Part shown: in pieces, positions 32,691-54,381 of the stretch
Layout: each line of letters opens with the position of its first letter
Position numbering within the stretch: the first letter of the stretch is position 1
IMG/VR virus record: IMGVR_UViG_3300021255_003843
Location: 32,001 to 96,000 of that record
Direction: 5' to 3' (one strand)
Length of the DNA stretch: 64,000 nucleotides
Origin: a virus
Lineage: Duplodnaviria; Caudoviricetes
Notes under the pieces: generated by a model
What the model saw: only the letters and a program-made list of their open reading frames with translations
The model's database searches: none
Told to the model about the DNA's origin: nothing
Translations under genes and position numbers: made by a program

Positions 32691-32714
32691 CTAAACACCT
32701 TCTTACCTTCAAAT

Positions 32715-34175: not shown

Positions 34176-34179
34176 AACA

Positions 34180-34440
34180 TCACGTCCTTCTCTTTAGTGC
34201 GTTTTGAAAATAAATATCTCGGGCTAAATGTTTGTACCAATCATTTAGATCCCCGAGATCGAAAGATATTTGAAACTCGCTGTTGCTTGTCTCTTCGACA
34301 GTAACCGAGATTTCTGAAAGGTCAATACCTTCCACCATTGCGTCATACTTAATAAGCGCATCGATTTCTTCCGCTTGTTCACTGACCTTCTGTCGAATCA
34401 TCTGCATCATTTTGTCTTCAAGACTTCCGGCGTCAACCAT
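34180..34440 (-). CDS. Hypothetical neck-region protein
   Basis: ORF coupled to its neighbours. Confidence 0.6.
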   Translation of the reverse strand: MVDAGSLEDKMMQMIRQKVSEQAEEIDALIKYDAMVEGIDLSEISVTVEETSNSEFQISFDLGDLNDWYKHLARDIYFQNALKRRT

Positions 34441-35162: not shown

Positions 35163-35174
35163 AAACAGCCCTCC

Positions 35175-35519
35175 TTACTTCGAGGCGCTGTCAATCATTT
35201 CCGCTATCACTTCTGAAAGCTTCATGTCTGCACAAGACACGCCTTTATAGTGTAAAGTTTTAGGAAGCCGCGCAATTGAGTTAGCAACATCAAGCAGTTT
35301 ATGCCGAATCTTATTAAAGCCCTGTATAGACTCTTCGCTCCACTCGCTCTTCTGCTTTCCTTCCTCAAACTTATAATATGCGTCCTCTACATCGAGGATG
35401 AGCCGCTTGATTTCTAACTCAAGCATATTCGTATATTCAAAAAACGTATATGTCTTTTGATTGATGTGTTCCATATTCTTATTGAGATAATCAATAAGAA
35501 CAGTAAAGTCCTTGTTCAT
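35175..35519 (-). CDS. Hypothetical protein
   Basis: ORF within the structural operon. Confidence 0.65.
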   Translation of the reverse strand: MNKDFTVLIDYLNKNMEHINQKTYTFFEYTNMLELEIKRLILDVEDAYYKFEEGKQKSEWSEESIQGFNKIRHKLLDVANSIARLPKTLHYKGVSCADMKLSEVIAEMIDSASK

Positions 35520-35549
35520 TTACCTTTACCTCTATCCTTATAATGGTCG

Positions 35550-36599
35550 TTAACGGCCGTAGATTTTAATCTTCGTGTTTTTGCCAAAGTTGTTGGTGTT
35601 ATAAGAAAGAACGATACGATTGACAACAGCAGGCGGATTGTCAGAACCATTCCAGTTGCTATAAGCAAGCTGACCAACGGCAGTGCCGACACCGCTCGCT
35701 GTTTCGTACCTTGCAGTTTTCACTCGCGTTTCTACAAGCCAACGATTCGGCGCGATCTGTTTAGCATAGATGTCGCCATACGTAATGCGGTCAGTGTATA
35801 TAGAATGGTTGGCACTGATTAAGACATTTGTTGCGCTGTCGGATGAACCTATTGAAACATTGAAACGGCTCGCTTTATCAGTCGCCGCAGGTTCAAAATT
35901 TGTTTCAATATAGAAACCGCTTGCGATATTCAGAGGCTTGCCAGTGCTGTCTTGACTAATAATAATAGACGACACATCTTCTGTCAGAGTGATCTCATTC
36001 AGCAGCGGCATCGGAGTGTCACCGTCTCCAGTGATAATTGTATCTCCGCCGCCGGAAGACACAGTGGTCCAGTAGTTGACACCTTGACCGTTTGTTGCAA
36101 GAACTTGTCCGGCAATACCGGGACGAGCCGGCGCGTCAAGCTTGCCGCTGATGTCGATCGTAGAGCCGGATCCATCCGTGTGCACTTCGGGCGCATACAG
36201 TGTCTGCGTATTGTTGCCGACCTTAATCGTAGCAATACGAGTACCGCTCGTCTGTACAGGCGTCACGGTAACAGTTTCAGAGTTCGGCGCAAAGATAGAC
36301 TTGGTTTCACTGCCGATCTTGATGTTCGCAATACGAGTACCACTATCAACCAGAGTAGTTACAGTTACTTTCTCAGCTTCAGGAATTTCAACAGCCGGCG
36401 CATAAAGCGGAGTGCGCTTTGTGCCAACCGTAACGCCGCCGATTTCAGTACCGGACTTAACGACCTGGTCGACCTTAATAGTAGCGACGTTGCCTTCTTC
36501 ATCTTTGCCGATGCCGCTATCTTCGATCTCGTCAAGACGTTGCTTCAACTGCAGCATATATAACGCTGATGCGTTATCGTCTACGATAATTCTTTCCAT
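35550..36599 (-). CDS. Putative neck/head fibre with three SGT.I..I.VG....LYAP repeats
   Basis: Three related ~30-aa repeats, then a GQVLATNGQG..W fibre motif. Confidence 0.6.
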   Translation of the reverse strand: MERIIVDDNASALYMLQLKQRLDEIEDSGIGKDEEGNVATIKVDQVVKSGTEIGGVTVGTKRTPLYAPAVEIPEAEKVTVTTLVDSGTRIANIKIGSETKSIFAPNSETVTVTPVQTSGTRIATIKVGNNTQTLYAPEVHTDGSGSTIDISGKLDAPARPGIAGQVLATNGQGVNYWTTVSSGGGDTIITGDGDTPMPLLNEITLTEDVSSIIISQDSTGKPLNIASGFYIETNFEPAATDKASRFNVSIGSSDSATNVLISANHSIYTDRITYGDIYAKQIAPNRWLVETRVKTARYETASGVGTAVGQLAYSNWNGSDNPPAVVNRIVLSYNTNNFGKNTKIKIYGR

Positions 36600-36613
36600 A
36601 AGAATTCCACCTT

Positions 36614-37042
36614 TCAGTTTGTTAAACAGGCAAACCTGCTCATTTTAAAAAAGACAATTCTCCGCTCGTTTTCAAGCTGACCAATCGTATCCTGCAAATG
36701 AGCATAAGGTTTATCCGCAGACGTAACGGTCAGAGCGTCCGTGCTGTAACTGACAATGTTATTAACGTCAGATTGCACTCTTTTGAAAAAGTTAATTTTT
36801 GCGACGAGCAATATATACTTCTCTTCGTCTATTTCAAAATCATAATTAAAAACGTCTTCACCGTATTCGTTCTTTGTCAGATACTCTTTCTTATATTCGA
36901 AGGTTCGACCTGTATCTATGAACAGCGTTTTTATCGCGCTGATAATAAAGCGCTGGTAATCATAGTCCGTCAATATTTCCGGCGTCCTTTGCCATGCCGT
37001 TGCTTCCTTCAGCTCGTCGATAAAATCAGATAATAGTGTCAC
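36614..37042 (-). CDS. Putative head-tail adaptor
   Basis: Position after capsid genes; helical, ~140 aa; AGGAGG RBS. Confidence 0.55.
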   Translation of the reverse strand: MTLLSDFIDELKEATAWQRTPEILTDYDYQRFIISAIKTLFIDTGRTFEYKKEYLTKNEYGEDVFNYDFEIDEEKYILLVAKINFFKRVQSDVNNIVSYSTDALTVTSADKPYAHLQDTIGQLENERRIVFFKMSRFACLTN

Positions 37043-37063
37043 AAGCCTCACCTCCTGTTTCGG

Positions 37064-37507
37064 TTAGCCCTCTAGCCAATCCTTATTCGGTATCTTATTA
37101 TTCAGGATCTTCAGCTTGCTGGCGGGCAGATCCATACCCATTGCCACTTTATAAATAGCATGCAGCTCTTCGGGATCGGAAATAGAATCAAGCCATTCTT
37201 CAACCTTGCGAGCAGGTCCCTTGAGCGCAGCAGTGATTTCAGCGTCATTCAGATGCTTCTCGGCATCAGGATCTTCATAGATCAAAAACTTTTCGAGAGG
37301 AACGTCGTTGCCCTGATCATCGACAGGGACAAGCATCTTCTGAGAAAAGAACTTCTTGTTAGCGCAGAGCCCTTCGATAGAAGCGATTTCGTCAGAAGTA
37401 AGCATAACAAAATTACCCGTCTTAACATTGACGGACTGGTTGTTCGGCTTCATTACGCCGATATCATATTTGCAACGATTATATACACGATAATATTCTT
37501 GCGTCAT
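37064..37507 (-). CDS. Hypothetical protein downstream of major capsid
   Basis: ORF with RBS. Confidence 0.7.
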   Translation of the reverse strand: MTQEYYRVYNRCKYDIGVMKPNNQSVNVKTGNFVMLTSDEIASIEGLCANKKFFSQKMLVPVDDQGNDVPLEKFLIYEDPDAEKHLNDAEITAALKGPARKVEEWLDSISDPEELHAIYKVAMGMDLPASKLKILNNKIPNKDWLEG

Positions 37508-37529
37508 AACCTTATCCCTTTCTTGATAA

Positions 37530-37561
37530 GCGGAGCTGCCGCATCAAAGCGGCAGCTCCGC
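37530..37561 (-). terminator. Terminator after major capsid gene
   Basis: GCGGAGCTGCCGC-N6-GCGGCAGCTCCGC. Confidence 0.7.
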
Positions 37562-37567
37562 GCTTTA

Positions 37568-38572
37568 TTAGTTGATCTTATAAGCGCCGATCGTGGGCAC
37601 CTTGCCAACCACGAAGCCCGCACCGAACCACTGGTCCAGACGGATTTCGTAAACTAGGTCGTCAATATTCTGGGACTCGAACGCCTGCACAGTGCCTTCG
37701 TTCACAACCTTCAGGTTGCGCATATCAGCAGAGATGCTGCCGGGCAGCAGGTACAGGTAATCGATCGCCAGGGTCGGGGTCACGCCATCATCCTGCAGAC
37801 TGTTCTGCATCTGGATAACGTCGCAGCCATTGTAACGGCCAAGCAGACCGTTGTCGTTATACTCGTCGATCATCTTATCGGACGGATTCACGATCATCGC
37901 GCCGCCAGCATAAGAAGCCATGCCGGTGATGCCAGCCAGCTGACCAACAGCAGCGGCGTCGCCGAGAATGGTCACACGGCCAAGACGCTTGAAGTGAGCC
38001 AGCTGCTCGTCGAGAGTAGCCTTCACAATACCAGTGCCGGTCGCATAGAACGGCTTCTGGTAATCATCGATCGCGTTGTGCAGCACGTTTTCGATGTGCT
38101 TCAGCTTCATGTTGGTCATTTCGCGGTTCGCTTCGCGAACGAGATCGGGCATATTCACACGGCCAGTGCGCAGGTCGAGGATATTGATGGCCGGACGAGC
38201 GGAAATCTCCATGGTCTCCAGCATGACCTGACGATCAGCCACGTAGCTGCGCGGCGTGGTAGAACCCTTGGCCTGGATAACGGCCTTAATATTGCCGGTC
38301 TTCACATTAAACGCGGCCTTGTCGCCGTAACCAATGTTCTTGATATCAGCAACGTTGTTCAGGAAATCCAGTTCACCCTGCTGCAGTTCGTTCACGGTAA
38401 ACGCGATCGTCTGCGCCAGCTGGTGACGGTTAGTGGGATTAGGATCTTTTACGAGCTCAGAAATAATCTGGTTCGCTTCGTCGATCTGAGCGCCATCAAC
38501 ACGCTCGTTGCGGGCCTGCGCGGCCAGCACCTTTACAAACCCAGAGTTGGGCTTAACAATAATTTCACTCAT
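37568..38572 (-). CDS. Major capsid protein (HK97 fold likely)
   Basis: 334 aa after protease and decoration genes; G.LGRYNG..V motif; followed by a terminator. Confidence 0.8.
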   Translation of the reverse strand: MSEIIVKPNSGFVKVLAAQARNERVDGAQIDEANQIISELVKDPNPTNRHQLAQTIAFTVNELQQGELDFLNNVADIKNIGYGDKAAFNVKTGNIKAVIQAKGSTTPRSYVADRQVMLETMEISARPAINILDLRTGRVNMPDLVREANREMTNMKLKHIENVLHNAIDDYQKPFYATGTGIVKATLDEQLAHFKRLGRVTILGDAAAVGQLAGITGMASYAGGAMIVNPSDKMIDEYNDNGLLGRYNGCDVIQMQNSLQDDGVTPTLAIDYLYLLPGSISADMRNLKVVNEGTVQAFESQNIDDLVYEIRLDQWFGAGFVVGKVPTIGAYKIN

Positions 38573-38594
38573 AGTCTTTCACCTCTCAGCCTTA

Positions 38595-39029
38595 TTAACC
38601 GATCGTGCCGTCGGCCTTGACGGTGTACTCGGTACCAGCCACAGGGGTGCCAGTAACCTTGTCGGTCACAAACTCTTCGCCGACCAGCAGCGGATGAGCA
38701 CGCAGATACGCGTCGGCCTTAGTGGCATAAGCGCGGGTGTCATACTCCTGCTCGCCGCCAACGTTCAGCTCAAAGCCGTTCTCGACGAGATACAGGGGAT
38801 CACCGATCGCCTTCACGATAAAACGATAGACGGGAACGCCACCATAGATAGAAGTAGCTTCCTTGCAAATAAACTTAGTAGCAGCATTAGCCGCCGGCAG
38901 TACAAACTTGCCAGCGTCAGAGCCGGTGCCAACCGCAACCAGCGCGCCGTTCTCAATGGCAGCGCCAGTGCCGTTTGTGAGTTCACCCTCATAAACGTAG
39001 CCCTGAAGCTTCGTCATGTAACCAGCCAT
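38595..39029 (-). CDS. Capsid decoration/cement protein
   Basis: IENG.LV motif; between scaffold and MCP. Confidence 0.6.
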   Translation of the reverse strand: MAGYMTKLQGYVYEGELTNGTGAAIENGALVAVGTGSDAGKFVLPAANAATKFICKEATSIYGGVPVYRFIVKAIGDPLYLVENGFELNVGGEQEYDTRAYATKADAYLRAHPLLVGEEFVTDKVTGTPVAGTEYTVKADGTIG

Positions 39030-39095
39030 GATTTATCCCTCCAAATACAGAAAGCCGCCGGTTAAGCCCGGCGGCGCTTTTGTTTTATTTTATTC

Positions 39096-40244
39096 TCACA
39101 CGGGGTCGAGCAGCGAGTAATGCTCCCGGCTCACATGTTCCTGCTCATCAAGCAGGGTATATTTCTTAGGCTGATTAATTTCAGCCATAAAAGGATTGAC
39201 ACTCTCAGAGAGCTTCTTCTCCTGCTCGGCAAAAAGCTTACGGATATCTTCGACACTCGTCTGCATTTCAGCCAGTTCCTTGCGGAGTTCGGCAATAGCA
39301 TTCTGAAGGGACGCAACTTCCTTATCTTCTTCGTCCTCTTCTTTCTCTTCTTCTTCGGTCTGTTCAGCAACCTGCTCTTCAGCGGTCGCCTTTTCTTCCT
39401 CCGCAGTAGTGCGCGTAGTCGTCTCAACTACAACACGCTGCTCTGCGGAATCACCAGTATCAGTGTCATACGCGCAAGTTTCATTAATTTCAGTGTGAGT
39501 TTCTGTCACATAAACTTCAGCGTTTTCCTTATTCTCTTCAGCCTGAACGTTTTCTTCGGGCTTTACCTCGGCAGTTTCCTGCTGAGTTTCATTTTCCGCC
39601 GCCGTCTTAACTTCTGTCTCGGCGACGACAGTTTCTTCGTTCGGCATATGTTCTGCCTCCTTCGTTAGATCTTTGTTACAGGCTTCAATCTCAGCCACGA
39701 GCTGCAACGCCACAGCTTCAGGACACGCAGGGAAAGACACAACGCACATACCTTCGAGGTAGTTGCCTTCAGCCTTGTCAATAAGAATCGTCTTATCTTC
39801 AAGCTCTTCGTAACTGCCGCAATTAATTTCAAAGCTGAACTTCAAAGCGCCTTCAGCAAATAACTCGCTGATCGCCTTGCATACAGCTTTATTGCGTTTA
39901 AGAATTCTCGCGTATCCAACAAGAGCTTCGCTTCCGTCTTCGTTGGCGACAACTTCAAACTTATAGAAGCTGCCGATCATCGAGGTAGAAAACGTTCCGG
40001 TCACAGCGTTGTAACAATGACCAAGCTTTTCGTATTGACCATTTGCCAAATTTTTTACATCTGCGCAAAGAGGCAGGCCAATATACTTTTCCTGATTCTC
40101 TACGATCTCACTAAGGAAATCGTGTGTGCAGCGCACGCCGTTCAGGTTCGCTTCAGGAACTGTGAACAGCGTAGCTTTTACTGTCATATACAAATCAGAA
40201 CTTTGCAGCTCGGAGGCAGATGCAATAAAAGTCTTAATGAGCAT
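39096..40244 (-). CDS. Prohead protease with acidic scaffold C-terminus
   Basis: NLNG...GH...IG...FSFEI...G.CVV..PA; Glu-rich tail plus coiled coil. Confidence 0.75.
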   Translation of the reverse strand: MLIKTFIASASELQSSDLYMTVKATLFTVPEANLNGVRCTHDFLSEIVENQEKYIGLPLCADVKNLANGQYEKLGHCYNAVTGTFSTSMIGSFYKFEVVANEDGSEALVGYARILKRNKAVCKAISELFAEGALKFSFEINCGSYEELEDKTILIDKAEGNYLEGMCVVSFPACPEAVALQLVAEIEACNKDLTKEAEHMPNEETVVAETEVKTAAENETQQETAEVKPEENVQAEENKENAEVYVTETHTEINETCAYDTDTGDSAEQRVVVETTTRTTAEEEKATAEEQVAEQTEEEEKEEDEEDKEVASLQNAIAELRKELAEMQTSVEDIRKLFAEQEKKLSESVNPFMAEINQPKKYTLLDEQEHVSREHYSLLDPV

Positions 40245-40375
40245 ATTGCATTTCTCCTTTATGCTTACACATACAGCAGTAGGAGGATACTCTATGTGTT
40301 TGCACAGATATATACAAAGACACCGTCATTTTCAGACGGCGTCGATGTAACAAATATTATACAGTTTTCGTGACA

Positions 40376-40777
40376 TCAAGACACTTCTTCCCAGCCATAC
40401 ACGCCAGGTTCCCATGAGTTGTTGTCAGCAATGCATATCCAAATCTTGCCATTGTGCGCGACCTTGTCGCCCTTCTGGTATGTGTTTGTGCTGTCAGGCT
40501 GTTCCCATTCATGGATTACGTCAGGATCCGGTATAAGAACTTTAGCAAACAAAGACGGAGCTTCCGGAGGAGTCCATGAAGACTGAGACGTGTGCGCCTG
40601 AAGCACCTTATACAGAATGCCATCATAACGTACACGTTCACCTACTTCTTTGTATTCATGATTATTCTTCCAACTCGGATATAACTGTATCGCATCTAAA
40701 GCTTCCTCGTCTGTTAAAGACGTGGCAGCTTTTTCGATATATCCGCGCAGCTTCTGCGCTAATTCAACAAGCGTCAT
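40376..40777 (-). CDS. CBM5/12 (ChiC-like) carbohydrate-binding virion protein
   Basis: LYP.W...VGERVRY.G.LYKVLQAHTSQ..WTP...EWEQPDSTN.Y.KGDKV.HNGK.W...N.WEPGVYGW. Confidence 0.8.
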   Translation of the reverse strand: MTLVELAQKLRGYIEKAATSLTDEEALDAIQLYPSWKNNHEYKEVGERVRYDGILYKVLQAHTSQSSWTPPEAPSLFAKVLIPDPDVIHEWEQPDSTNTYQKGDKVAHNGKIWICIADNNSWEPGVYGWEEVS

Positions 40778-40938
40778 TCACTCACCCCCAAAAGGATGCG
40801 CGTAGCTTCTAACTCTTGCTCCAATTCCGCAATGCGATCTTCTAATGTCTTCACGTCGTCGGGTTCGACGATCGCTTCAGCTGCTGCAATCTCAGCCTCT
40901 GTCGCGTCGCGATATGCGCCGTTATCATATATCCTCAT
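40774..40938 (-). CDS. 54-aa coiled-coil protein (ends TRILLGVSE)
   Basis: Below the ORF-track cutoff; GAGGTG RBS; ATGA overlap with the next gene. Confidence 0.7.
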   Translation of the reverse strand: MRIYDNGAYRDATEAEIAAAEAIVEPDDVKTLEDRIAELEQELEATRILLGVSE

Positions 40939-40961
40939 ATGTAACACCTCGTATATTTATT

Positions 40962-42545
40962 TTAACCATCGTCCATGCTGCCTTCGGGGTTCGATGGCTT
41001 AGGTTGTTTGCCGCGCTCAGAAGCGTCGGGGTCCGAGTTGCGTTCTTCGTCCGTCATCTCTGGACGTCCGCCATCGCTATCGTTCGCAGACGTTTGACCA
41101 GCTAAAGCCCGAGGCTGCATTGTTTCGTCAGTACCATCGGCACTCTCTTTGGCACGCTGAGCCTTCTCTTTTTCAAGAGAATAGCCCTGGGTTTCCATCA
41201 TTGTCTTAGTAGATACTAAGCCTTGCGTCCAAAGTTCCTTGCAGACATCGCGAAGCGCTTTGCGGCCATCCATGTCAAGCGGCATAAACTTAAACGAAGG
41301 AACTTGGTTGACGTTATACTTATGCGTTATCGCAAGCTCTTCCTGAATGCAGACATTGATTTTATTCATTAATTCACAGATCTCGTCGCGGGCCGCATCA
41401 ATTCGCATAGATGCAGTTTGCATAGATACCTGCGCCGAAGCGAAAGTGCTGCCGTCTTCGGAAACACCGTTGACGATAATACCGCTGATACCTCCAGCAG
41501 ACAGGATGTCTTTATTGACATCACGATACTTGTCAAATTGGAAGAGGTCATCAAGCTTAGGCTGTATGACGTTTGCTTCCGCGAGCTGGTTAGTAACAGC
41601 GAGCGGAAACTTAGACATCGCGTTGGAAAAGACGTTGCGTACGTCTTTGAGTTCGGTAATATCAGGCAGTATGTCCCGTCCCTTTTGTTTGTCGCCGTAA
41701 GTAACATGAACGAACGAACGGATGCCTAAGTTAAGAATAGCGTTCTCATATTTAGAGATAAGCTCTTTCTTAGCTAAAGCCGGCAAGCATGCCGCAATAA
41801 AAGGAATAGCGTAACGCATCCATCCTTCTTTCGGGCACTGAAGCACCTTCGTATACTTAGGATTCAACTGTGCGTACTGCGCGCCTTTGTTTAAAGCCTC
41901 GAAGACTTCGTCGGGATAGCCGGCGAAATACTGCTGGAGGTTATTGTCTTTGATCCAGTTTTCTCTGACGGTGTAGCTCTTCTGCCGCCACTCATTCAGA
42001 ATTGTCTGGCAATCAAAGTCAACGATCGGTTCGCCATTCAACATCGTGTTGCCGATCTTACAAAGATGGACCGGCAAAGTGATAGGCACACCATGGAAGA
42101 TATAAACAAATACGTTAGAGTATTTCCAATACTCGACAGCGATGCTTTCAAGCTTTTCGCGCAGACGGATCTGTTTATAAAACTCTTCGTATATTTTATT
42201 AGTCTTGTCGTTTGTACCGACAAGGTTCCATGGCGAGCCGATAGTGTACGGCACATAGACATGACGCACGATCCCGCGAACGACGGGATCAGCGTCACAG
42301 TAGTAATCGGAAAGTTTATAGAGGTTAACGATGTTTCTCTGCTTGTCTCTTAATATGGCATCGTAATCGTAACCAACTAGGTTGCCATTAAAAGTAATAT
42401 TGGAATTTGAGAACGATTGATAATCGGTGCGGTCTTCGTCATCTTTAGCGCCGGTCACCGTCTTACCTTTTCTGTCGTTAGCCGGAAGCTGATTCGCCGC
42501 AGCTTCTGCAGGCTTCTGCCTTCTGAAAAGATCAAGGAATCCCAT
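40962..42545 (-). CDS. Portal protein
   Basis: Directly after terminase; ~530 aa; C-terminal GGRP motif; GGAGG RBS before MGFLD. Confidence 0.85.
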   Translation of the reverse strand: MGFLDLFRRQKPAEAAANQLPANDRKGKTVTGAKDDEDRTDYQSFSNSNITFNGNLVGYDYDAILRDKQRNIVNLYKLSDYYCDADPVVRGIVRHVYVPYTIGSPWNLVGTNDKTNKIYEEFYKQIRLREKLESIAVEYWKYSNVFVYIFHGVPITLPVHLCKIGNTMLNGEPIVDFDCQTILNEWRQKSYTVRENWIKDNNLQQYFAGYPDEVFEALNKGAQYAQLNPKYTKVLQCPKEGWMRYAIPFIAACLPALAKKELISKYENAILNLGIRSFVHVTYGDKQKGRDILPDITELKDVRNVFSNAMSKFPLAVTNQLAEANVIQPKLDDLFQFDKYRDVNKDILSAGGISGIIVNGVSEDGSTFASAQVSMQTASMRIDAARDEICELMNKINVCIQEELAITHKYNVNQVPSFKFMPLDMDGRKALRDVCKELWTQGLVSTKTMMETQGYSLEKEKAQRAKESADGTDETMQPRALAGQTSANDSDGGRPEMTDEERNSDPDASERGKQPKPSNPEGSMDDG

Positions 42546-42563
42546 AGGCGATCCAACCTCCAT

Positions 42564-44219
42564 TTAGAAATAAGTGGCAATGCCTACACAAGGCTTGCCT
42601 CTCTGATATTTTTTTATATTATCTTTCTCAAGCTCGCTGATGTAATCATTTCCCATTGCTAAGCTTGAGTATCGGTCTTTATGCATTGAGTTGCGCGGCG
42701 TGTCGTATAAAACGTTACCGCTCGCACCAACCTTGCTGACAATATTGCCCATCTCAAATTGCAAAGCATCGGCCTCGTGAAATATAGCCTTCTCCTCCAT
42801 CCGCATTTGCTGCGAAGGATCCTCGAGCTCAGCCTCAGAGGCTTTAATAATCCGAGAGTCAACAGGCAACTCGATTGTACGTTTCTCTAATGCGACGCGC
42901 AGGTTTGTGTAAATACGCTGGTTCAGCGTCTGCACTGCCCTAAAAGGATGTAGCACAGGTAAAGCCGCCGCGTTCATGTTAGGAGAATCGTCGACGACGA
43001 GAGGCGGGTATTCCTTCCCGCTCACGGAGTCGACCCATTCCTTATCAAAGAAACGGTCGAGACTGTCGCCAAGACCTCTGGCGTCGTAGATGATCTTCTC
43101 GGTATTCGGAAACTTAACATGGTAAAGCTGTCGTAGCTCCTCAGCTAACACGTCTAAGGTTTTGCCGTGGAAGCTTCGTATTAGCACAACCTTCTTGGCA
43201 TAGCTACCGTCGGCTCGCTCAGTAAACTTAATCACTGTGATGATCGAGTTGTCTGCGTCCTTTGCCTCGGAGGTCGCGATATCCAATGAGATAACGTATC
43301 TTGACTTGCTATTCTTAGGTTGTTCAAGCTCAATCTTCTTAAGCGTCCTGCAGCTTTGTGTCAACTCATAAGGGAAGGCTGAGTTATTTTCAGAGCCTAA
43401 GAATTTACATCCGTACTCCATCTGGAAGATGATATCAGGCATGCGAGCTTTCTCGCCCTCAAAGAATTGCGCATCGTTGATGCCATCCGCGATAGCGGTC
43501 TTATAGTCAAGCGCGCAGGCGAACTGCGTTCGGTCGCCCTTCGCCATGCGCTTTACAGTCTCTAAGAAGTTTGAGTAATACTGGTTATTCTTAGCGCACG
43601 CACTCGTAATCGTTACGGTTTTAGATTGAAAATCCTTGAACCCAAATGTTCTTGCATTATACCGTATCTCGTTTCTTGTCGGGGCTACAATCGCCTCAAG
43701 CTTGTCCTGGTCGACATCAAGCGCCTCATCAACAATGACGAGCTTCGCACGTTGGCCGCGAACACTCTCTAGTGCAAGGCTCCGCAGTACGCTGCCATTT
43801 TTCAGCGTACACTGCGAGCCGTTCTTGGAAATCTGAATCAAAGATCTCGCATTCGTCGCGTTGATCTCATTTGCGATATTCGGATTCTGGTCAGCGATCG
43901 ACTTGAGCGTCGTCAGGACTAAGGTAGCCTGAGCCGCCGTCGCCGATACAATCAGTATCTTCGAACCTGGATAAAGGACGCCAACGGCGAATCCAGCGAG
44001 CGCGGCTACGAAAGTTTTGCCGTAGCCGCGCGAGCATGTGTCGTTACTATTGACACAGTTGCCAATCTGTCTAATTAAGACGTGTTGCGTAGGAGAAAGC
44101 TTCACAGGCGCACACGCGTCTTCTATAAAGATGTCTAAGTGTTTGCGGTAGAAGATAATCTGCTCCTCTGCCGCGTCCCAATTTGTGATGACGCCAGGCC
44201 TCACTACTGCCACAGACAC
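42564..44219 (-). CDS. terL: Terminase large subunit
   Basis: Walker A SRGYGKT, RGQRA, Walker B VIVDEA, ITSA, nuclease ISLDIA...D, KDRYSS. Confidence 0.92.
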   Translation of the reverse strand: MSVAVVRPGVITNWDAAEEQIIFYRKHLDIFIEDACAPVKLSPTQHVLIRQIGNCVNSNDTCSRGYGKTFVAALAGFAVGVLYPGSKILIVSATAAQATLVLTTLKSIADQNPNIANEINATNARSLIQISKNGSQCTLKNGSVLRSLALESVRGQRAKLVIVDEALDVDQDKLEAIVAPTRNEIRYNARTFGFKDFQSKTVTITSACAKNNQYYSNFLETVKRMAKGDRTQFACALDYKTAIADGINDAQFFEGEKARMPDIIFQMEYGCKFLGSENNSAFPYELTQSCRTLKKIELEQPKNSKSRYVISLDIATSEAKDADNSIITVIKFTERADGSYAKKVVLIRSFHGKTLDVLAEELRQLYHVKFPNTEKIIYDARGLGDSLDRFFDKEWVDSVSGKEYPPLVVDDSPNMNAAALPVLHPFRAVQTLNQRIYTNLRVALEKRTIELPVDSRIIKASEAELEDPSQQMRMEEKAIFHEADALQFEMGNIVSKVGASGNVLYDTPRNSMHKDRYSSLAMGNDYISELEKDNIKKYQRGKPCVGIATYF

Positions 44220-45601: not shown

Positions 45602-45628
45602 CATATATATCAATTCTCGAATGTAATC
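45602..45628 (-). promoter_or_regulatory. 27-bp conserved motif, copy 2 (candidate late promoter)
   Basis: CATATATATCAATTCTCGAATGTAATC about 90 bp upstream of the structural operon. Confidence 0.6.
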
Positions 45629-46751: not shown

Positions 46752-46782
46752 AAAACAAAACCCCGGTGCACGAACACCGGGG
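46752..46782 (-). terminator. Terminator for antisense transcript
   Basis: CCCCGGTG-TTCGTG-CACCGGGG-TTTTGTTTT on the minus strand. Confidence 0.75.
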
Positions 46783-46811
46783 CCTGGCGTCCACGAAAGG
46801 AGGTGATTCCT

Positions 46812-46967
46812 GTGGACACCGTAGCTCTGACAGCAGAGCAATGTGTATGGTTTCTGACCATCACAGCGCCATATCGCAGAACTCTGCTGAAGAAGCTGTC
46901 CACCGGCGAGTATGTGCTCGTATGGGATGCGGCAACGCATGAGTACATACTGACAAAGGTGGATTAA
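46812..46967 (+). CDS. 51-aa small protein covered by a predicted antisense RNA
   Basis: AAAGGAGGTGA RBS, GTG start; MDTVALTAEQCVWFLTITAPYRR... Confidence 0.65.
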   Translation: MDTVALTAEQCVWFLTITAPYRRTLLKKLSTGEYVLVWDAATHEYILTKVD

Positions 46968-47003
46968 CAGCTCACCGAGAAGGTTCACGCCCTTCTCGGT
47001 TTC

Positions 47004-47032
47004 AGTTTACCAGACACGTGAAGCCGTGTCAA
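47004..47032 (-). promoter_or_regulatory. sigmaA-type promoter (antisense)
   Basis: TTGACA-17-TAAACT with extended TG. Confidence 0.7.
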
Positions 47033-47477
47033 GATGTTAACGATTTGTTAAGTTGGATTCATAAAGAATTCCATCTTTTCATTTCGTTTTCAAAAACCCT
47101 CGCCATCGGCAAATGATCCTGATAACACATCAGATTTGTTTGTCGATGCTTCCTGTGGTATCGGACAAGCTGGCCCTTTACAGCTTGTCCGTTTTGATAT
47201 ATGCTGGTTAAGAAATTGACGCTTAACCACTTCGCTAATGTCAATTATCGTAACTTGGCTGGCGAGCCTTGTACGCGGAAGGAGGAAAATGGAAAAGGCT
47301 CCTGCCATCAACAGGAGCCATAGGAGGAAGGGATGTGAGTATCATCAACCTTCATCAGCATTATAGCATAATCACAGCTGTAATGCAAGCACATCGTGCG
47401 GCGATTAAGCATAGGCCTAGCCGTGGCAAGCGGTAAACTAACAGCAACTCAACAAACAAAAATTAGGAGGAAAAACC

Positions 47478-49988
47478 ATGAGTATCATTAATTTAGTGAA
47501 ATCCAACACCCTGTCTGTCGAAGAAACCAACGGAACCGGTGTCACTTTGAACACCGAAAACCATGCGTTCGGTCTGACTCCCGCGTTCACTCGCTTCTCC
47601 CCCGATTACTTCCAGATCATCGACACTGGAGATATGGATCGCGGAGAAATCCCCGCAGTTCAGAACTATCTCGACAACATCATCGACAACGGCATCCAGG
47701 ATGGAAGCCGTCGCTACATCCCGGTTTTCGCCGGTTCCAGCAACCAGCGCAATGGTCAGTTTGTAATGTGCTGGGACAAAATCTGGAACGACGTTACATC
47801 CTGGTGCTGTGCCGGTCTCGATTGCAGGAAATTGCCTGTAGGCAAGCTCGCCAAATACATGGCACTCATGTTCTCAACCGTTCGTTCCTGGGATGCTGTG
47901 TTTCCCGATGGTGGACTCTATGGGGTGTTCAAGTACCCACATCCCAGCACCTGGGGCGTGTTCCCTGACGTTGACATTGACGCTGTTGGCCTGTTCAATA
48001 AGGTCACTCCGTGGGCTGTAAACAAAGAACTGGTCCTCGGTTCTGACAAAGAGACCAACAAGATCACTGATGGTATCGCTCTGTTCGTTCTGGACGATAC
48101 TCAGCTCAACTCTCATCAGAAGAAAGAGATCATCAAGAAAGCAGAAGCTTTCACCGTCAGAGCTCCCATGGTCAAAGGTCTCTTCGTTCCTGTTCTCAAA
48201 TCCGCATTGATCAAGTGGTTCGAAGATCATCCCGAAGCGTCGTCTATTCAGAAGGACGCTTGGGGCAACGAACAGAACCTGCTCGACCTCCAGGTCATCA
48301 CCTTCAAGTCTGTCTTCAAAGCTTGGAAGTGCATCAAGCAGTGGTCCGAGTACGTTGAAGGCTTCGATACCTACGAGCACCATGTGTGGGTCTGCATCGC
48401 GGCGCACGGGGAGCGTTGGGCTTCCCTGCCGTATCAGCAGCTCCAAACCCTCAACGCCAACAATGCGCAGGTCGAGGAGCTCGCGCGCACCAGCGCGAGC
48501 TTCCTCATCGACAATGCCAAGATCGGTAAGCTTGGCAAGATCATCGGAGGAAACCTTGGCAAGATCGTCGACATCTTCCCGGATATGCTGCATGATCCCT
48601 TCGTCCGTGAGCAGCTGCAGCGGAAGTGGATTAGCCGCTGCAAGCAGATGTATGGCGGCCGCATCCTGCATGTCAGCCATAATCTGTTCTGCTCCAGCGA
48701 CATCATTGCCGTTATTGAAGGGTTGACTGGTCAGTCCGTTCATGGCGTGCTGCCTGCCAATACCGTGCACACTCAGGCCTTTGGTTACGACAGGAAGCTG
48801 GGCTGCACTCGCTGCCCGCATCTCGACAACGCGTGGGTCACTCCGCGCAACATCAAGGTTCCTGAGGAATATCTTGGCCTGTACATGGGCACCACAATCT
48901 TCTACAGCTGCAATGACAACACCATGAAGGTTCATCAGATGGACTTTGACGGTGATCACAGCAACGTTACCGACAATCCACTGCTCATCAAGCTGGCTGA
49001 GTACAGCCATGCCAGCTATGGCGATTCCTGCCTGCTGTACGCGGCCATGGACGATGGCACCGCGCCGAAGACGACGTCTGATTATAAGACTGAGTTCAAC
49101 GAGCTGTGCCGCAACAGCTTCAAGGCTCCGATCGGCCTGTACGCCAACACCCTGACCAAGGTTTGGGCTCTGCGTAACATGATGGAAAAGACCAGCGCTC
49201 AGGCTAAGAACCTGTGGGTGTGGATCGCCTGCCTGACCAGGAAGGGCAACACCTGCATTGATGAAGCTGGCGGACATGGCAAAGACAGCTCCGTCGGCAT
49301 CGCGGAAGACGTGGTCGAACGGTTCCGTCGGACAAAGAAGCCATGGTTCCATGGTTATGCCAAGGGCACGATCAATCCTCAGGGTCAGATCGTCCGCGCT
49401 GACGCCGACTACAAGTACGAGTTCAAGCCGTTCCACACTGTCGACGTCTATAGCGCCATCTGCCGGATGCTTGTGCCGACAGAGGCTGAAACAGTGATCG
49501 ATCTGTCCGCTTATTCCATTATTTACTCCAAAGAAGTAGCGGCCAGGATCGTTCGTACCCTTATGAAGGATTCCAATGTCCGCACCCGTCGTGCGGCCAT
49601 GAAGGATCTTTCTGATACCTTCGCCGATCTCGTCTGCGCAGCCAACCATGAAGAAGTGCTGATCGCTCAGAGCAGCAGCCTGGCCGCTGTGCCGAACTTC
49701 ACCATGGATAAGGTCGATCTGATCCGCGCCAAGTGCGAGCAGATCGCTCTGAACTGCGGCTACACGCTGGACGACGCTGTCGACATTCTGGTCTTCAATC
49801 TGTTCTACAAGACCAGCGCGACCAGTGCGAAAACCTCCATGATGAAGCGCTGGTTCTTCATCGCCTTCGGTGACATCGTGTTCGAAAACGCGCAGCGCAA
49901 CCTGTCCGTTGAACTCACGACCACCGACAACTACGAAGACGCCTCCGAGGAGGAGGATGACGACGCGATCGATCAGTTGGAAGACTGA
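47478..49988 (+). CDS. Single-subunit two-barrel (YonO-like) DNA-dependent RNA polymerase
   Basis: 836 aa; TDG(198), R....KG, YQ.LQTL, RCP, catalytic D489-F-D-G-D493. Confidence 0.88.
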   Translation: MSIINLVKSNTLSVEETNGTGVTLNTENHAFGLTPAFTRFSPDYFQIIDTGDMDRGEIPAVQNYLDNIIDNGIQDGSRRYIPVFAGSSNQRNGQFVMCWDKIWNDVTSWCCAGLDCRKLPVGKLAKYMALMFSTVRSWDAVFPDGGLYGVFKYPHPSTWGVFPDVDIDAVGLFNKVTPWAVNKELVLGSDKETNKITDGIALFVLDDTQLNSHQKKEIIKKAEAFTVRAPMVKGLFVPVLKSALIKWFEDHPEASSIQKDAWGNEQNLLDLQVITFKSVFKAWKCIKQWSEYVEGFDTYEHHVWVCIAAHGERWASLPYQQLQTLNANNAQVEELARTSASFLIDNAKIGKLGKIIGGNLGKIVDIFPDMLHDPFVREQLQRKWISRCKQMYGGRILHVSHNLFCSSDIIAVIEGLTGQSVHGVLPANTVHTQAFGYDRKLGCTRCPHLDNAWVTPRNIKVPEEYLGLYMGTTIFYSCNDNTMKVHQMDFDGDHSNVTDNPLLIKLAEYSHASYGDSCLLYAAMDDGTAPKTTSDYKTEFNELCRNSFKAPIGLYANTLTKVWALRNMMEKTSAQAKNLWVWIACLTRKGNTCIDEAGGHGKDSSVGIAEDVVERFRRTKKPWFHGYAKGTINPQGQIVRADADYKYEFKPFHTVDVYSAICRMLVPTEAETVIDLSAYSIIYSKEVAARIVRTLMKDSNVRTRRAAMKDLSDTFADLVCAANHEEVLIAQSSSLAAVPNFTMDKVDLIRAKCEQIALNCGYTLDDAVDILVFNLFYKTSATSAKTSMMKRWFFIAFGDIVFENAQRNLSVELTTTDNYEDASEEEDDDAIDQLED

Positions 49989-51203: not shown

Positions 51204-51234
51204 GCGCGCTGAGGACAGCGCGCGCCATGGTGAT
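51204..51234 (+). promoter_or_regulatory. AGGA-loop hairpin motif, copy 1
   Basis: GCGCGCTG-AGGA-CAGCGCGC-GCCATGGTGAT. Confidence 0.7.
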
Positions 51235-51275
51235 AGCTTCGTTTATCGAAATAACTTGAAGGAGGAAGCTGCGCT

Positions 51276-51437
51276 ATGGCGCTCGTGGTATTCATAATCC
51301 TGATAACAATCATCATGCTTGGTGACATCATCGTGGATCTATTGGATCAATTCTTGTGGCCGCTCATACTGCGTCGGGACGCACTGCATGTAGATAAGCG
51401 GAAACGTCCAAAACGCCAGAAATGGCAGTATCGTTAA
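51276..51437 (+). CDS. 53-aa membrane protein with basic tail
   Basis: AAGGAGG RBS; MALVVFIILITIIMLGD...KRKRPKRQKWQYR. Confidence 0.6.
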   Translation: MALVVFIILITIIMLGDIIVDLLDQFLWPLILRRDALHVDKRKRPKRQKWQYR

Positions 51438-51511
51438 AAACTCTACTGAATAAAAAAGCCGGACGCCCAATGAAAGGCGTCCGGCTTTCGTGAATGAAGG
51501 AGGAAATCACT

Positions 51512-51985
51512 ATGTGCAAAATCACTGATGTTACTATTGTTACCGACGGCGCTTGCTCCGGCAATCCTGGTCCCGGAGGCTGGTGCGCTCTCATGATCTG
51601 CGAAGGCAAGGAGCGCTCACTGCACGGCCACAAGACGCAGACCACCAACAATGAGATGGAACTCACTGCCGTGGTCCAGGGTCTTCAGGTGCTGCGCTAT
51701 CCCTGCACGGTGAAGGTACTGACCGACAGCGCTTACATCGTCAACCAGATCAATGGCGGTTATCTCGAGAAGTGGGCCAGCAATGGCTGGCGCACCTCGA
51801 CGAACCAGCCGGTGCAAAACCTGCACCTGTGGCAGGACCTGCGTGCAATGCTCAATGTGCACACCGTCACCTTCGTCAAGGTGAAGGGTCACAGCGGCGA
51901 TCCGCTCAACGAGAGAGCGGACCATGAAGCCTGCTGCGAGCGTGATCTTGCGAAAATCATGGCGTTCTCCGTAACGCCCGTGTAA
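51512..51985 (+). CDS. rnhA: Ribonuclease HI
   Basis: TDGACSGNPGPGGW, TTNNEMEL, TDSAY, N..LW, VKGHSG...NERAD. Confidence 0.95.
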   Translation: MCKITDVTIVTDGACSGNPGPGGWCALMICEGKERSLHGHKTQTTNNEMELTAVVQGLQVLRYPCTVKVLTDSAYIVNQINGGYLEKWASNGWRTSTNQPVQNLHLWQDLRAMLNVHTVTFVKVKGHSGDPLNERADHEACCERDLAKIMAFSVTPV

Positions 51986-52002
51986 TACAAGGAGGTTGTC
52001 AT

Positions 52003-52182
52003 ATGAGAAAGAACACTGGACTTATTCTCGCGATGCTGTTTATGATGTGCGTCGCTTTCGTAGCCGGTTGGCTGATCACTACGCATCATCTGGTGATCGA
52101 GTGCGACCATCCAAAGAATACGATCTACGTGACAGACATGTTCGGCCAGGAGTGGATCTACGATTACAATTGTGTCCGCTGA
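52003..52182 (+). CDS. 59-aa membrane/secreted protein
   Basis: AAGGAGG RBS; MRKNTGLILAMLFMMCVAFVAGWL... Confidence 0.65.
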   Translation: MRKNTGLILAMLFMMCVAFVAGWLITTHHLVIECDHPKNTIYVTDMFGQEWIYDYNCVR

Positions 52183-52207
52183 TGTCACAGGTCGAACCCG
52201 TAAAGGT

Positions 52208-52238
52208 GCGCGGCGAGGACGCCGCGCGCCATGGTGAT
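52208..52238 (+). promoter_or_regulatory. AGGA-loop hairpin motif, copy 2
   Basis: GCGCGGCG-AGGA-CGCCGCGC-GCCATGGTGAT. Confidence 0.7.
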
Positions 52239-52273
52239 ATAACGCACTTCTAATAAGTGTTGAATGAAGGAGA

Positions 52274-52612
52274 ATGAGTATGTATCAGTATAAGGTTCAG
52301 ATGATCAACCACAATATGCCGTCCAGGCATTATACGCTGCAGCACAGGCTGAACACCTGGCTCGAGGCTACCGGCACGACCAAGGCAGAACTCTCCCGTG
52401 CCTGCCAGGCCTACGCTTCTCACTATCGCATGAACTTCTCTAAGACGAACATCGCTCATTATTCTGCAGGACGCTGCTGCCCGAAGACGGACACTCTCGC
52501 GATCCTGAGCCATGTCATGGGAGTCTCTGAGCAGTGGCTCACTGGCTACGGTCCGGAATCTCTGCGTGTCACCAGAACTCTGGTATCTACGACACGCTAC
52601 ACCAGGGTATGA
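52274..52612 (+). CDS. XRE-family helix-turn-helix regulator
   Basis: RL...T.AELSR...SKTNI.HY..G...PK.DTL..LS....VSEQWLTG. Confidence 0.85.
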   Translation: MSMYQYKVQMINHNMPSRHYTLQHRLNTWLEATGTTKAELSRACQAYASHYRMNFSKTNIAHYSAGRCCPKTDTLAILSHVMGVSEQWLTGYGPESLRVTRTLVSTTRYTRV

Positions 52613-53205
52613 CACAGATGAGAGCGTGCTGAAATATGCACGCTCTCTTTTTTCAGAATCCTGGATGAAACTCAGGCTATTCTGTACAGAAGGGTCGCGA
52701 TCACTGAACGATCGGGGGACAAGCTATATAATAAATACGATGTCCCCGGATGCACGAGCTCCACTGGTAGAAAAACACCATAATGCACGAAACATTTTGG
52801 TTAGGGAGCAATGACGTGGAATAGTTGGGAATGTAAGTGAAATCAGGGGAAATGATAGGGGAGAGAACAGTTCTTTTCCTGTTTTTCCTATTTTCTATTC
52901 CTTTTTCATGCTCAATGACCACAGCAGTGCTCCTTAATACCCCACTTTTCTATATAAGCACCAATTGTAGTTTTCTACACTGATAGAGACGGCCGTGTGT
53001 TCACGCTTCGTGAATACCCGTTGCGTATCGCTACACTGGTAGATACACACATTCCGTCTCTAACGATAGACCCATAGGGTTCCTACTAACAACATCTAAG
53101 CGCTCCCTTTCCTCCACGCCTTTTGGATAGGCGGGGAAAGGGAGCTTATTCATGACCGTGCTTCTCTCATATTCGTTTCTAAACAACACATATGTATCTA
53201 ACATT

Positions 53206-53248
53206 ACGAAAAGGGGAGGGCTGCTGGCGCAGCCCTCCCCTTTTCGTG
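53206..53248. terminator. Bidirectional terminator hairpin
   Basis: ACGAAAAGGGGAGGGCTGC-TGGC-GCAGCCCTCCCCTTTTCGT. Confidence 0.75.
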
Positions 53249-53300
53249 TAAATCAACGTTTTTCGTTTGCATATTCGAAGGTCCGCTTCGCGTCCCTTCT

Positions 53301-53327
53301 CATATATATCCATTCTCGAATGTAATC
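53301..53327 (-). promoter_or_regulatory. 27-bp conserved motif, copy 3
   Basis: CATATATATCCATTCTCGAATGTAATC in a non-coding region. Confidence 0.55.
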
Positions 53328-53425
53328 GCACCTACATACTTTATCTGATATAGTACATCGACAGATGATGTATATATATCTGGTTGAATTTTTAACCAGA
53401 TTATCCTGGACATACCTCGCCTTAA

Positions 53426-53456
53426 CCGCGCTGAGGACAGCGCGGGCCATGATGGA
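53426..53456 (+). promoter_or_regulatory. AGGA-loop hairpin motif, copy 3
   Basis: CCGCGCTG-AGGA-CAGCGCGG-GCCATGATGGA. Confidence 0.7.
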
Positions 53457-53471
53457 ACTTACGGGGACTCC

Positions 53472-53500
53472 ATTATACTGTCGCCGTGAAACCCTGTCAA
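53472..53500 (-). promoter_or_regulatory. Consensus sigmaA promoter on the minus strand
   Basis: TTGACA-17-TATAAT, perfect match. Confidence 0.8.
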
Positions 53501-53571
53501 GTTAAATTTTTATTACAAATTTTCGTCGTCTTGCGCTGCAATGGACGATGTAAACCCGCCAGGAGGACCAT

Positions 53572-53826
53572 ATGGAAGAAGAGTTCAAAGAAGGAGATCT
53601 TGTCGTCATCAAACAGAGCAAACATTGCTTAGTTGAAGACATCAGACAAGAACATCGCAAAGCATTTGAGATTCTTTGCGCGACGCCGCACGCAGTGAGA
53701 GATTATAAGAAATCATCAAATCTACTTTATGTTCCGGTTCTGGAAGGCAATGCCACAATTGTCTTGAGTCCGGAATGGTTTGAGCACGCTGACGATCCCA
53801 TCGAGAACAATCCTGACCTGTACTGA
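53572..53826 (+). CDS. SH3/KOW-like paralog 1
   Basis: FKEGDLVVIK...WFE...DLY. Confidence 0.75.
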   Translation: MEEEFKEGDLVVIKQSKHCLVEDIRQEHRKAFEILCATPHAVRDYKKSSNLLYVPVLEGNATIVLSPEWFEHADDPIENNPDLY

Positions 53827-53861
53827 CGCCACTTCCCCGCTCCGCCGTTACGCAGACGGGG

Positions 53862-53892
53862 GCGGCCTGAGGACAGGCCGCGCCAGGATGAA
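53862..53892 (+). promoter_or_regulatory. AGGA-loop hairpin motif, copy 4
   Basis: GCGGCCTG-AGGA-CAGGCCGC-GCCAGGATGAA. Confidence 0.7.
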
Positions 53893-53948
53893 GGGTTTGA
53901 CGCCCTTCGGAAATAACAAACGTGCGGCAGAGCCGCGAGGAGGAAATT

Positions 53949-54137
53949 ATGGAGCGTGAATATTTCTTTAACCAGAGCAAAGCTTTTGATCCGACCGCCG
54001 GCTGCGCCCTGAACCGCATCGAAGCGGAGCAGAAAAGAAAAAGGAATAAGGAAGCCTGGCTCGAGATCGCCCGCAAGATGTGTTCTAAGCCTCAGCATCT
54101 CTTTGTTCCGGTAGGTGAACTGGTTGTGAAAGCCTGA
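53949..54137 (+). CDS. Hypothetical small protein
   Basis: GAGGAGG RBS; DPTAG.A...I motif. Confidence 0.65.
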   Translation: MEREYFFNQSKAFDPTAGCALNRIEAEQKRKRNKEAWLEIARKMCSKPQHLFVPVGELVVKA

Positions 54138-54175
54138 TCCCGCCGGGAAAAGAAGCTTGACTTCAGCAACGAAAG

Positions 54176-54206
54176 GCGGCCTGAGGACAGGCCGCGCCAG
54201 GGTGAA
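54176..54206 (+). promoter_or_regulatory. AGGA-loop hairpin motif, copy 5
   Basis: GCGGCCTG-AGGA-CAGGCCGC-GCCAGGGTGAA. Confidence 0.7.
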
Positions 54207-54381
54207 GGGTTATACGGCCCTTGCCCGACGAATCGCAAAACAAAAGCGATTCGTCGCAAAATCAAGACTCGTTACGCGCTGCAGACAAATGCTCCGGCGC
54301 GAAACGATATATTTTGATGCGAAAAGCATCCGACAAAATGGCAGACGCCAAACGCCCACAGGGCAGAAAGAGAGAGAGAGT

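Follow-up and report, generated by a model that had tools for sequence, protein, structure and literature searches.

The window analysed here, a stretch of 64,000 nucleotides, comprises positions 32001-96000 of the IMG/VR record IMGVR_UViG_3300021255_003843 (105,495 bp, estimated 95% complete). It harbours P0001, a gene for a protein of 836 amino acids (aa), which is predicted from its sequence and its structural model to be a complete single-chain two-barrel RNA polymerase of the YonO/QDE-1 branch. The same phage genome possesses two further predicted polymerases of this kind, one within the giant tape measure protein and one, P0003, which is the orthologue of YonO of the Bacillus prophage SPbeta. 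We propose that the three enzymes act in a three-step relay, and give this model as a whole a probability of about 0.55. Within it, P0001 would be an early or middle enzyme and not the late enzyme. Coordinates follow the window numbering unless marked 'genome', and the present genome is called G000.

P0001 as a predicted two-barrel RNA polymerase

The open reading frame (ORF) of P0001 is open over 47478-49988 (+), starts with ATG and is preceded by a strong ribosome-binding site, TAGGAGGAAAAACC. No large gene precedes it in the rightward (+) block, and the head of the leftward structural module is about 2 kb away. A preliminary description of the window had reported an 836-aa ORF with the motifs DFDGD and RCP near the start of the + strand block, and had named it a stand-alone YonO-like RNA polymerase. 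Translation and an alignment of 27 metagenomic homologues, with identities from 95% to 29%, confirmed the ORF and both motifs. RCP corresponds to aa 445-447 (nt 48810-48818), 41 residues ahead of DFDGD at aa 489-493 (nt 48942-48956). Three parts of the protein were recognised:

48159-48329 (+), first (beta-like) barrel signature, R228-A-P-x-x-K233-G and F-K281-S-V-F-K284, which aligns with RxPWxKGL and KSQFKxWK of the YonO clade
48810-48956 (+), second (beta-prime-like) barrel with the metal-binding loop, R445-C-P-H-L-D...D489-F-D-G-D493, which aligns with RSPHL...DxDGD of YonO and P0003
49920-49985 (+), disordered acidic C-terminal tail, with a predicted local distance difference test score (pLDDT) below 50 at residues 822-836

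In the 27 homologues, the residues R228, K233, K281 and K284 of the first barrel (RAPxxKG / FKSVFKAWK region), and R445, P447, H448, L449, D450, D489, D491, G492 and D493 of the second barrel, are invariant. Since DFDGD and RCP are kept down to 29% identity, they point to a conserved active site and not to a chance pentapeptide. The acidic tail is also widespread, with 10-15 D/E among the final 30 residues in 24 of the 27 members of the P0001 clade.

The assignment to the YonO family was corroborated by sequence and structure. P0001 matched PHROG 8308 (phrog_8308) with E 4e-58, and tblastn aligned residues 57-568 with SPbeta YonO and its Bacillus phage relatives at 24% identity (E 2e-12). Pfam gave no real match for P0001 up to E 1, and the gathering threshold of PF05183, the eukaryotic-type RNA-dependent RNA polymerase (RdRP) family, was missed; a match to DASH_Hsk3 was discarded as chance. 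Two relatives of P0001 (P0027 and P0029) do carry PF05183. A sequence search among solved structures found no match for P0001 or for the N-terminus of the tape measure. An exhaustive HMMER search of 1.84 billion representatives revealed 353 relatives of P0001.

The AlphaFold2 model of P0001, built from the 27-sequence alignment, reached pLDDT 87.9 and a predicted template modelling score (pTM) of 0.86. Foldseek placed QDE-1 (E 5e-16) and RDR2 on top, followed by P23-45 gp64 (E 3e-5), P74-26 gp62, crAss phi14:2 gp66 and P23-45 gp96. With VIA-align, the model matched maize RDR2 over 629 residues (Z 24.3, root-mean-square deviation 3.2), QDE-1 with Z ~21, gp62/gp64 with Z ~14 and gp96 with Z ~10. 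The beta-prime subunits of cellular multisubunit RNA polymerases (msRNAPs) matched residues 391-606 of the model with Z ~8. Judged by its fold and by the conservation of its active site, P0001 is very probably an active polymerase.

P0003 and the two clades of the family

A search of the whole record with P0001 revealed P0003, an ORF of 947 aa at genome 97324-100167 (+), 1.3 kb beyond the end of the window and 18 kb further downstream of P0001. P0003 possesses the motifs FDVDGD and RSPHL. It is 33% identical to SPbeta YonO over the full length, including the Cys-rich C-terminus (E 3e-144), matches PHROG 8308 with E 1.5e-174 and clears the Pfam threshold of PF05183 (26 bits vs 23.8). P0001 shares ~24% identity with P0003 and ~24-25% with YonO (E 1e-23 to 3e-29).

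In a tree of 165 family members, the deepest split (support 100) separates clade A, with YonO and P0003, from clade B, with P0001. Profile comparison found the two clades homologous end to end (probability 100%, E 1e-80, 671 columns). The C-termini of YonO and P0003 are rich in CxxC and can be aligned with each other, whereas P0001 lacks the Cys-rich segment and ends in the acidic tail instead. By these sequence comparisons the true YonO orthologue of the genome is P0003, rather than P0001, and homology therefore gives the late role to P0003. With P0003 as a third polymerase, the programme of two polymerases that the preliminary description had outlined, with P0001 as the late enzyme, is not supported.

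In two fragmentary relatives, the YonO orthologues (G011 24262-28124 and G012 5201-9099) are interrupted by an insert of ~1 kb, possibly an intron, an intein or a homing endonuclease.

The polymerase domain of the tape measure

The preliminary description had also named a virion polymerase, and a polymerase domain in the tape measure was substantiated. The gene and the domain have the following positions:

14049-30410 (-), tape measure, ORF of 5,453 aa
27432-29102 (-), tape measure polymerase domain, located by hhalign of ten tape measure N-termini against the YonO clade

The middle of the ORF carries PF10145 (PhageMin_Tail) and several tape measure PHROGs. With the single sequence, hhalign gave a mere hint, in which residues 852-917 (VQRSPSL...ADLDGD) resemble the RCPHL...DFDGD region. 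An alignment of the N-termini of ten related giant tape measures showed R591, K597, R860, P862, D906, D908, G909 and D910 to be invariant, and the profile of these ten sequences matched the YonO clade with a probability of 97.1% (E 5e-11, 359 columns), covering both barrels. The same profile matched the P0001 clade with a probability of 36%. The tape measure domain and P0001 are not each other's closest relatives (97% vs 36%), and the closest family of P0001 is likewise the YonO clade. The domain is probably carried in the virion and injected with the DNA.

The domain has been exchanged among relatives. One type occurs in G001 and G004 and another in G000 and G003. The first ~1,260 residues, which contain the polymerase domain, are of the other type in the tape measures of G001 (25746-44126) and G004 (91012-108768) than in the window (26600-30410), and BLASTP of these two tape measures found no match to the first ~1,275 residues of the present one. 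The remainder is 42-45% identical. From this pattern, the difference at the N-terminus is best described as a module swap within the giant gene.

Three polymerases in related genomes

All long ORFs of the related IMG/VR records G001 and G003-G012 were scanned with hidden Markov models (HMMs) of both clades. Long enough to judge are G003-G010 (76-127 kb) plus G000; the fragments G001, G011 and G012 contain those parts of the set that lie within their range. Each of G003-G010 encodes a giant tape measure of 3,346-6,777 aa with RxP...D[FLA]DGD at residue ~900-1100, one YonO orthologue, and a second stand-alone paralogue with an intact DxDGD. By contrast, 41 of 41 other viral records with YonO, 13 of them at least 90% complete, possess a single YonO gene when searched with both clade profiles, for which the very divergent paralogue of G004 served as positive control. 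A tape measure polymerase domain was found with the ten-sequence profile in 0 of these 41 records.

The arrangement of the genes is constant. Each of the ten genomes has the second polymerase at a distance of 0.5-3 kb from the point where the structural module diverges, with transcription leading away from this junction, and the YonO orthologue follows 17-34 kb further along the same strand. The histories of the two stand-alone enzymes differ. Nine YonO orthologues form one tight clade, in which those of G000 and G004 are sisters with 75% identity, whereas the twelve second polymerases are spread over at least five subclades of clade B, with those of G004 and of G005/G006 on long branches at the other side of the tree. 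Both trees were made with FastTree only, the second from a faster alignment, and the long branches of G004, G005 and G006 are of low reliability.

A replacement is visible between G001 and G004. Both flanks of the locus share 78-88% DNA identity, including a leader of 140 nt, and the polymerase ORF and the next ~450 nt are unrelated. The sequences indicate that the locus of the second polymerase is fixed, while its occupant was replaced between close relatives. That the set persists while two of its three members are exchanged argues for a functional link among them.

Timing in a recoded relative

Relative G003 (IMGVR_UViG_3300029305_007380) reads TAG as a sense codon. It encodes a tRNA(CTA) at 49228-49311, and the frame of its tape measure stays open only if 18 in-frame TAG codons are read through. 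The structural genes, together with the rightward genes from 65.6 kb on, contain 4.4 TAG per 1,000 codons. The 961 codons of the P0001-type gene include no TAG (P = 0.015, given the rate of the late genes), and the 57.8-65.3 kb block has 0 TAG in 1,466 codons. In the 34.9-54.9 kb block, which comes after the P0001-type gene and holds the suppressor tRNA, 7 TAG were observed and 14.7 were expected. On the rightward strand, the switch from TAG-free to recoded genes coincides exactly with the YonO orthologue, which contains 6 TAG.

In recoded phages, the recoded genes are proposed to be translated only once the suppressor is present. If recoded genes do need the suppressor, production of the second polymerase would precede that of the YonO orthologue and of the tape measure. 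This codon pattern, like the presence of P0003, speaks against the late-gene role that had been suggested for P0001 and suggests that it is an early or middle enzyme.

Candidate cis signals

Three families of repeated signals were found around these genes:

45602-45628 (-), late-type 27-nt motif GATTACAYTCGAGAATKGATATATATG, copy 1, at the head of the structural module, promoter-like
13926-13952 (-), late-type motif, copy 2, after the terminator behind the tape measure gene and before Dit
53301-53327 (-), late-type motif, copy 3, leftward, followed by a 19-bp hairpin at 53206-53247
genome 101364-101390, late-type motif, copy 4
51204-54207 (+), five GC hairpins with a GCCAKGRTGA tail, starting at 51204, 52208, 53426, 53862 and 54176, all downstream of P0001
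50031-50053 (+), stem-loop GCyG-TGGCAAG-CrGC, between P0001 (stop codon 43 nt upstream) and the next gene (44 nt downstream)
47414-47436 (+), second TGGCAAG stem-loop copy, 42 nt before the P0001 start, in the present genome only

The 27-nt motif GATTACAYTCGAGAATKGATATATATG occurs in four copies in the genome. In the loci of the relatives the exact motif gave no match, and looser patterns gave matches. G001 and G004 possess a near-same motif at the same two structural positions, and related versions were found in G005/G006 (TTTCACCTTTCGAGAATCGCCTATATGGA) and in G010 (ATGTAATCATTCACTAA-N6-TATAAGGGAAAGA). In G005/G006 and G010, some of these versions stand at the head of the structural module, and those of G005/G006 also occur just before the gene of the YonO orthologue. 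The motif was sought in the yonN-yonK region of SPbeta, which holds the start site of YonO, and none was found there, the published coordinate of that site not being placed on the record.

The GC hairpins are also present in G001 (3 copies) and G004 (6 copies), while versions particular to G005/G006 and to G008 exist as well. A role of the hairpins as promoters for P0001 or for the injected enzyme was considered and set aside, because G001 and G004 possess them although one or the other of these enzymes is of a different type there.

The preliminary description had paired two repeat families with two enzymes, as a candidate promoter for each. This pairing is not supported, since both the motif and the GC hairpins are nearly unchanged in G004, where the second polymerase and the tape measure domain are replaced. 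As the motif is near-identical in G004 with an unrelated polymerase at the locus, P0001 is probably not the enzyme that reads the late signal. Among the phage polymerases, only the YonO orthologue tracks the motif and the GC hairpins.

The TGGCAAG stem-loop, with only two copies in the genome, is the only signal of the three families that travels with genes of the P0001 type. The downstream copy is near-invariant in five genomes whose polymerases are 53-76% identical and shows one compensatory change in the stem (C:G to T:A, with a T.G intermediate). It is not present after the replacement polymerase of G004. At the position of the upstream copy, relatives have another small hairpin (GCGG-TCAAT-CCGC).

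As a separate observation, the motif copy at 53327-53301 is aimed into the early region and is immediately followed by a perfect 19-bp hairpin, possibly giving a short regulatory or antisense RNA made late.

The proposed relay

In the proposed relay, the injected tape measure enzyme would transcribe the P0001 gene after infection, and the host polymerase would do so after prophage induction. P0001 would be made first and would then transcribe the rightward early and middle genes, including that of the YonO orthologue, perhaps with its start at the conserved stem-loop that closely follows the P0001 gene. P0003 would subsequently transcribe the structural genes from the 27-nt late-type motifs. 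We infer this order, and the signal that each enzyme reads, from the timing in G003 and from the precedents of P23-45 and SPbeta. In P23-45, the tape measure enzyme gp96 transcribes the gene of gp64 (PMC10770324). In SPbeta, YonO is a DNA-dependent transcriptase that transcribes 37 late genes as one operon (Forrest et al. 2017, PMC5467207). Packaging of SPbeta DNA starts between yonR and yonP, adjoining yonO (bioRxiv 10.1101/2021.11.22.469490); if the junction by P0001 holds a pac site, by analogy P0001 would lie at one end of the packaged DNA.

A further proposal, for which we would give somewhat less than even odds, is that within this trio of injected, early and late enzymes of large temperate-looking SPbeta-like phages the early enzyme is a hot-swappable cassette with its own cis signal, the TGGCAAG stem-loop. 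As the cassette would bring its own signal, close relatives could swap the first intracellular step of transcription and keep the late YonO enzyme and its promoters. If so, exchange of the early enzyme is perhaps driven by host defences or by competing phages.

Several points weigh against the relay. The phage is uncultured, and the relay is proposed from sequences. The closest solved structures, QDE-1 and RDR2, are RNA-dependent enzymes, so that the predicted fold leaves the template preference of P0001 unsettled. The timing marker comes from one recoded relative whose counterpart is just 27% identical to P0001, and the TAG depletion of the early block of that relative is partial (7 vs 14.7 expected). 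All genomes with the trio belong to one YonO subclade, with at least 51% identity to P0003, and their co-occurrence may therefore go back to a single origin and not to repeated selection. The stem-loop has just 4-5 pairs with one compensatory change, and it could be an RNA-level element or a terminator instead of a promoter. A candidate promoter for the injected enzyme was not found upstream of P0001.

Alternative roles for P0001

An unlikely alternative, and the one that survives best, is that P0001 is a stand-in for the injected enzyme after prophage induction, expressed from a host promoter. After induction of a temperate phage no virion polymerase is present; the phage seems temperate, with relative G006 classed as a provirus, and a sigma-70-like site lies upstream of P0001 at 47177-47205. 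The perfect co-occurrence of the tape measure polymerase and the second paralogue (10 vs 0/41) would also fit a stand-in. However, the tape measure domain and P0001 are not closest relatives, as the former matches the YonO clade with 97% and the P0001 clade with only 36%. Moreover, both enzymes have been exchanged independently (G001 possesses a P0001-type gene together with a G004-type tape measure domain), which is hard to square with a shared promoter specificity.

Somewhat less probable still is the reading that P0001 is the functional equivalent of YonO, the late polymerase of a two-step programme after an early virion enzyme. P0001 belongs to the YonO family and has near-equal length (836 vs 839 aa), it lies by the junction and the structural module as yonO lies by the SPbeta opening point, and a late-type motif stands within the same intergenic zone. 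Nevertheless, the same genome encodes the closer YonO orthologue P0003, the late motif is kept where the second polymerase was replaced, and P0001 lacks the Cys-rich C-terminus of YonO. In G003 its counterpart is free of TAG, in contrast to the recoded late genes and the recoded YonO orthologue.

We likewise give little credence to the idea that P0001 is no mRNA polymerase and makes replication primers or R-loops, or copies RNA like QDE-1 and RDR2. Its acidic tail presumably resembles the partner-docking tails of SSB-type proteins (single-stranded DNA-binding protein, SSB), RNase H and SSB genes are conserved shortly downstream, and its best structural matches are RdRPs. RNase H and SSB are, however, ordinary early replication genes, and the fixed place of P0001 at the head of the operon suits transcription. 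YonO shares these structural neighbours, and its transcription from DNA is proven (PMC5467207).

That P0001 is a dead or decaying copy without any function of its own is very improbable, since fast evolution, repeated replacement at the locus and the lack of a Pfam match of P0001 itself are outweighed by catalytic residues that are all invariant in the 27 homologues down to 29% identity, a frame intact in all relatives, a locus that is always occupied and a confident model across the full length.

Genomic setting

The phage, of ~105 kb and SPbeta-like, appears to be temperate. The search of 7.5 kb of DNA around P0001 against 50,697 phage records gave no match, and a scan of GTDB genomes with patterns of the P0001 family found no relative. 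Beside the genes described above, the setting of P0001 includes the following:

42564-44219, terminase large subunit, leftward structural module
40962-42563, portal, leftward structural module
37568-38572, major head, leftward structural module
12815-13966, Dit, leftward structural module
47335-47436 (+), upstream ORF of 33 codons, which starts VSIINL (cf. MSIINL of P0001); direct repeat D4
51494-51985 (+), RNase H gene, Pfam PF00075 (E 1e-35)

In 8 related genomes and 3 metagenome contigs, the second polymerase has an RNase H gene 1-4 kb downstream, and the SSB gene comes after that. This neighbour raises the idea that minimal polymerases without a lid may leave R-loops.

The upstream ORF of 33 codons is preceded by a duplicate of the ribosome-binding site of P0001 and ends within the upstream copy of the TGGCAAG stem-loop. 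It could encode a leader peptide or be a recombination scar. Further to the left, a good leftward sigma-70-like promoter (TTGACA-17-TAAACT with TG) is present at 47004-47032 (-), with a leftward terminator ~220 nt beyond it at 46758-46785 (-). Together they could yield an antisense RNA across a small control-region gene at 46813-46968.

An antisense ORF of 591 aa at 47874-49649 (-), within P0001, was rejected as spurious because it is in pieces in a 75%-identical orthologue; it is a by-product of the high third-position GC of P0001 (0.71).

Comparison with known systems

Similar to P0001, YonO of SPbeta (PHROG 8308) is a single-chain two-barrel enzyme of ~840 aa with RxPHL...DxDGD and RxPxxKG, and the two align over nearly the full length. 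In both cases the gene adjoins the junction or opening point of a large siphovirus genome of the SPbeta type. The two proteins are nevertheless only ~24% identical and belong to sister clades, the genome of P0001 possesses a much closer YonO orthologue, and the Cys-rich C-terminus of YonO stands against the acidic disordered tail of P0001. YonO is a late-gene enzyme, whereas P0001 probably acts earlier.

QDE-1 and RDR2 (PDB 2J7N, 7W82, 7ROZ) resemble the model of P0001 over almost the whole chain (Z 20-24, ~630 aligned residues). A link in sequence is given by PF05183, which is matched by relatives of P0001 and by P0003 itself, P0001 being below the model. The identity is 10-15%, and these eukaryotic enzymes act in RNA silencing, whereas P0001 is a gene of a phage operon.

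The strictly lytic coliphage N4 has a relay of an injected virion RNA polymerase (vRNAP), then N4 RNAP II, then the host polymerase. As in the proposed relay, there are three polymerases, the injected one acts first and the gene of the second is among the earliest to be transcribed. The N4 enzymes are T7-like single-subunit polymerases and the third is that of the host, whereas the enzymes of the present phage are of the two-barrel type.

The cellular transcription enzyme has its simplest relatives in the single-chain two-barrel polymerases, of which, to our knowledge, only YonO, crAss gp66 and the two enzymes of P23-45 have so far been investigated. Three diverged versions in one 105-kb genome, presumably each with its own signals, offer a comparison set for promoter recognition by minimal enzymes. 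The exchange of the early enzyme in near-identical contexts, with the late-type motif and the hairpins constant, amounts to a natural swap experiment, and small orthogonal pairs of polymerase and promoter are useful tools. The set also raises the puzzle of how a temperate phage can restart after induction if it depends on an injected polymerase.

YonO-family enzymes, polymerases fused to tape measures and phages with two polymerases are known kinds. Among the non-jumbo siphovirus contigs in Supplementary Data 4 of Chaban et al. 2024 (PMC10770324), a few have two single-chain polymerases and no contig has three. As far as the literature consulted shows, three two-barrel polymerases in a 105-kb SPbeta-like siphovirus and their strict linkage have not been described, nor have a fixed locus at which the early enzyme is exchanged and the stem-loop that accompanies it.

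The closest precedent for the polymerase set is Thermus phage P23-45, which similarly combines a tape-measure-fused polymerase with a free two-barrel polymerase among its first genes (PMC10770324). The model of P0001 matches the enzymes of this type with Z ~14 over ~500 residues (gp64/gp62) and Z ~10 (gp96). The present phage seems to be temperate and unrelated to the Thermus lineage of P23-45. In contrast to P23-45, its fused and free enzymes are not nearest relatives, and the free enzyme has been replaced between close relatives. For the late genes, P23-45 uses a modified host enzyme (PMC10770324), whereas the present phage possesses a third polymerase, the YonO orthologue.

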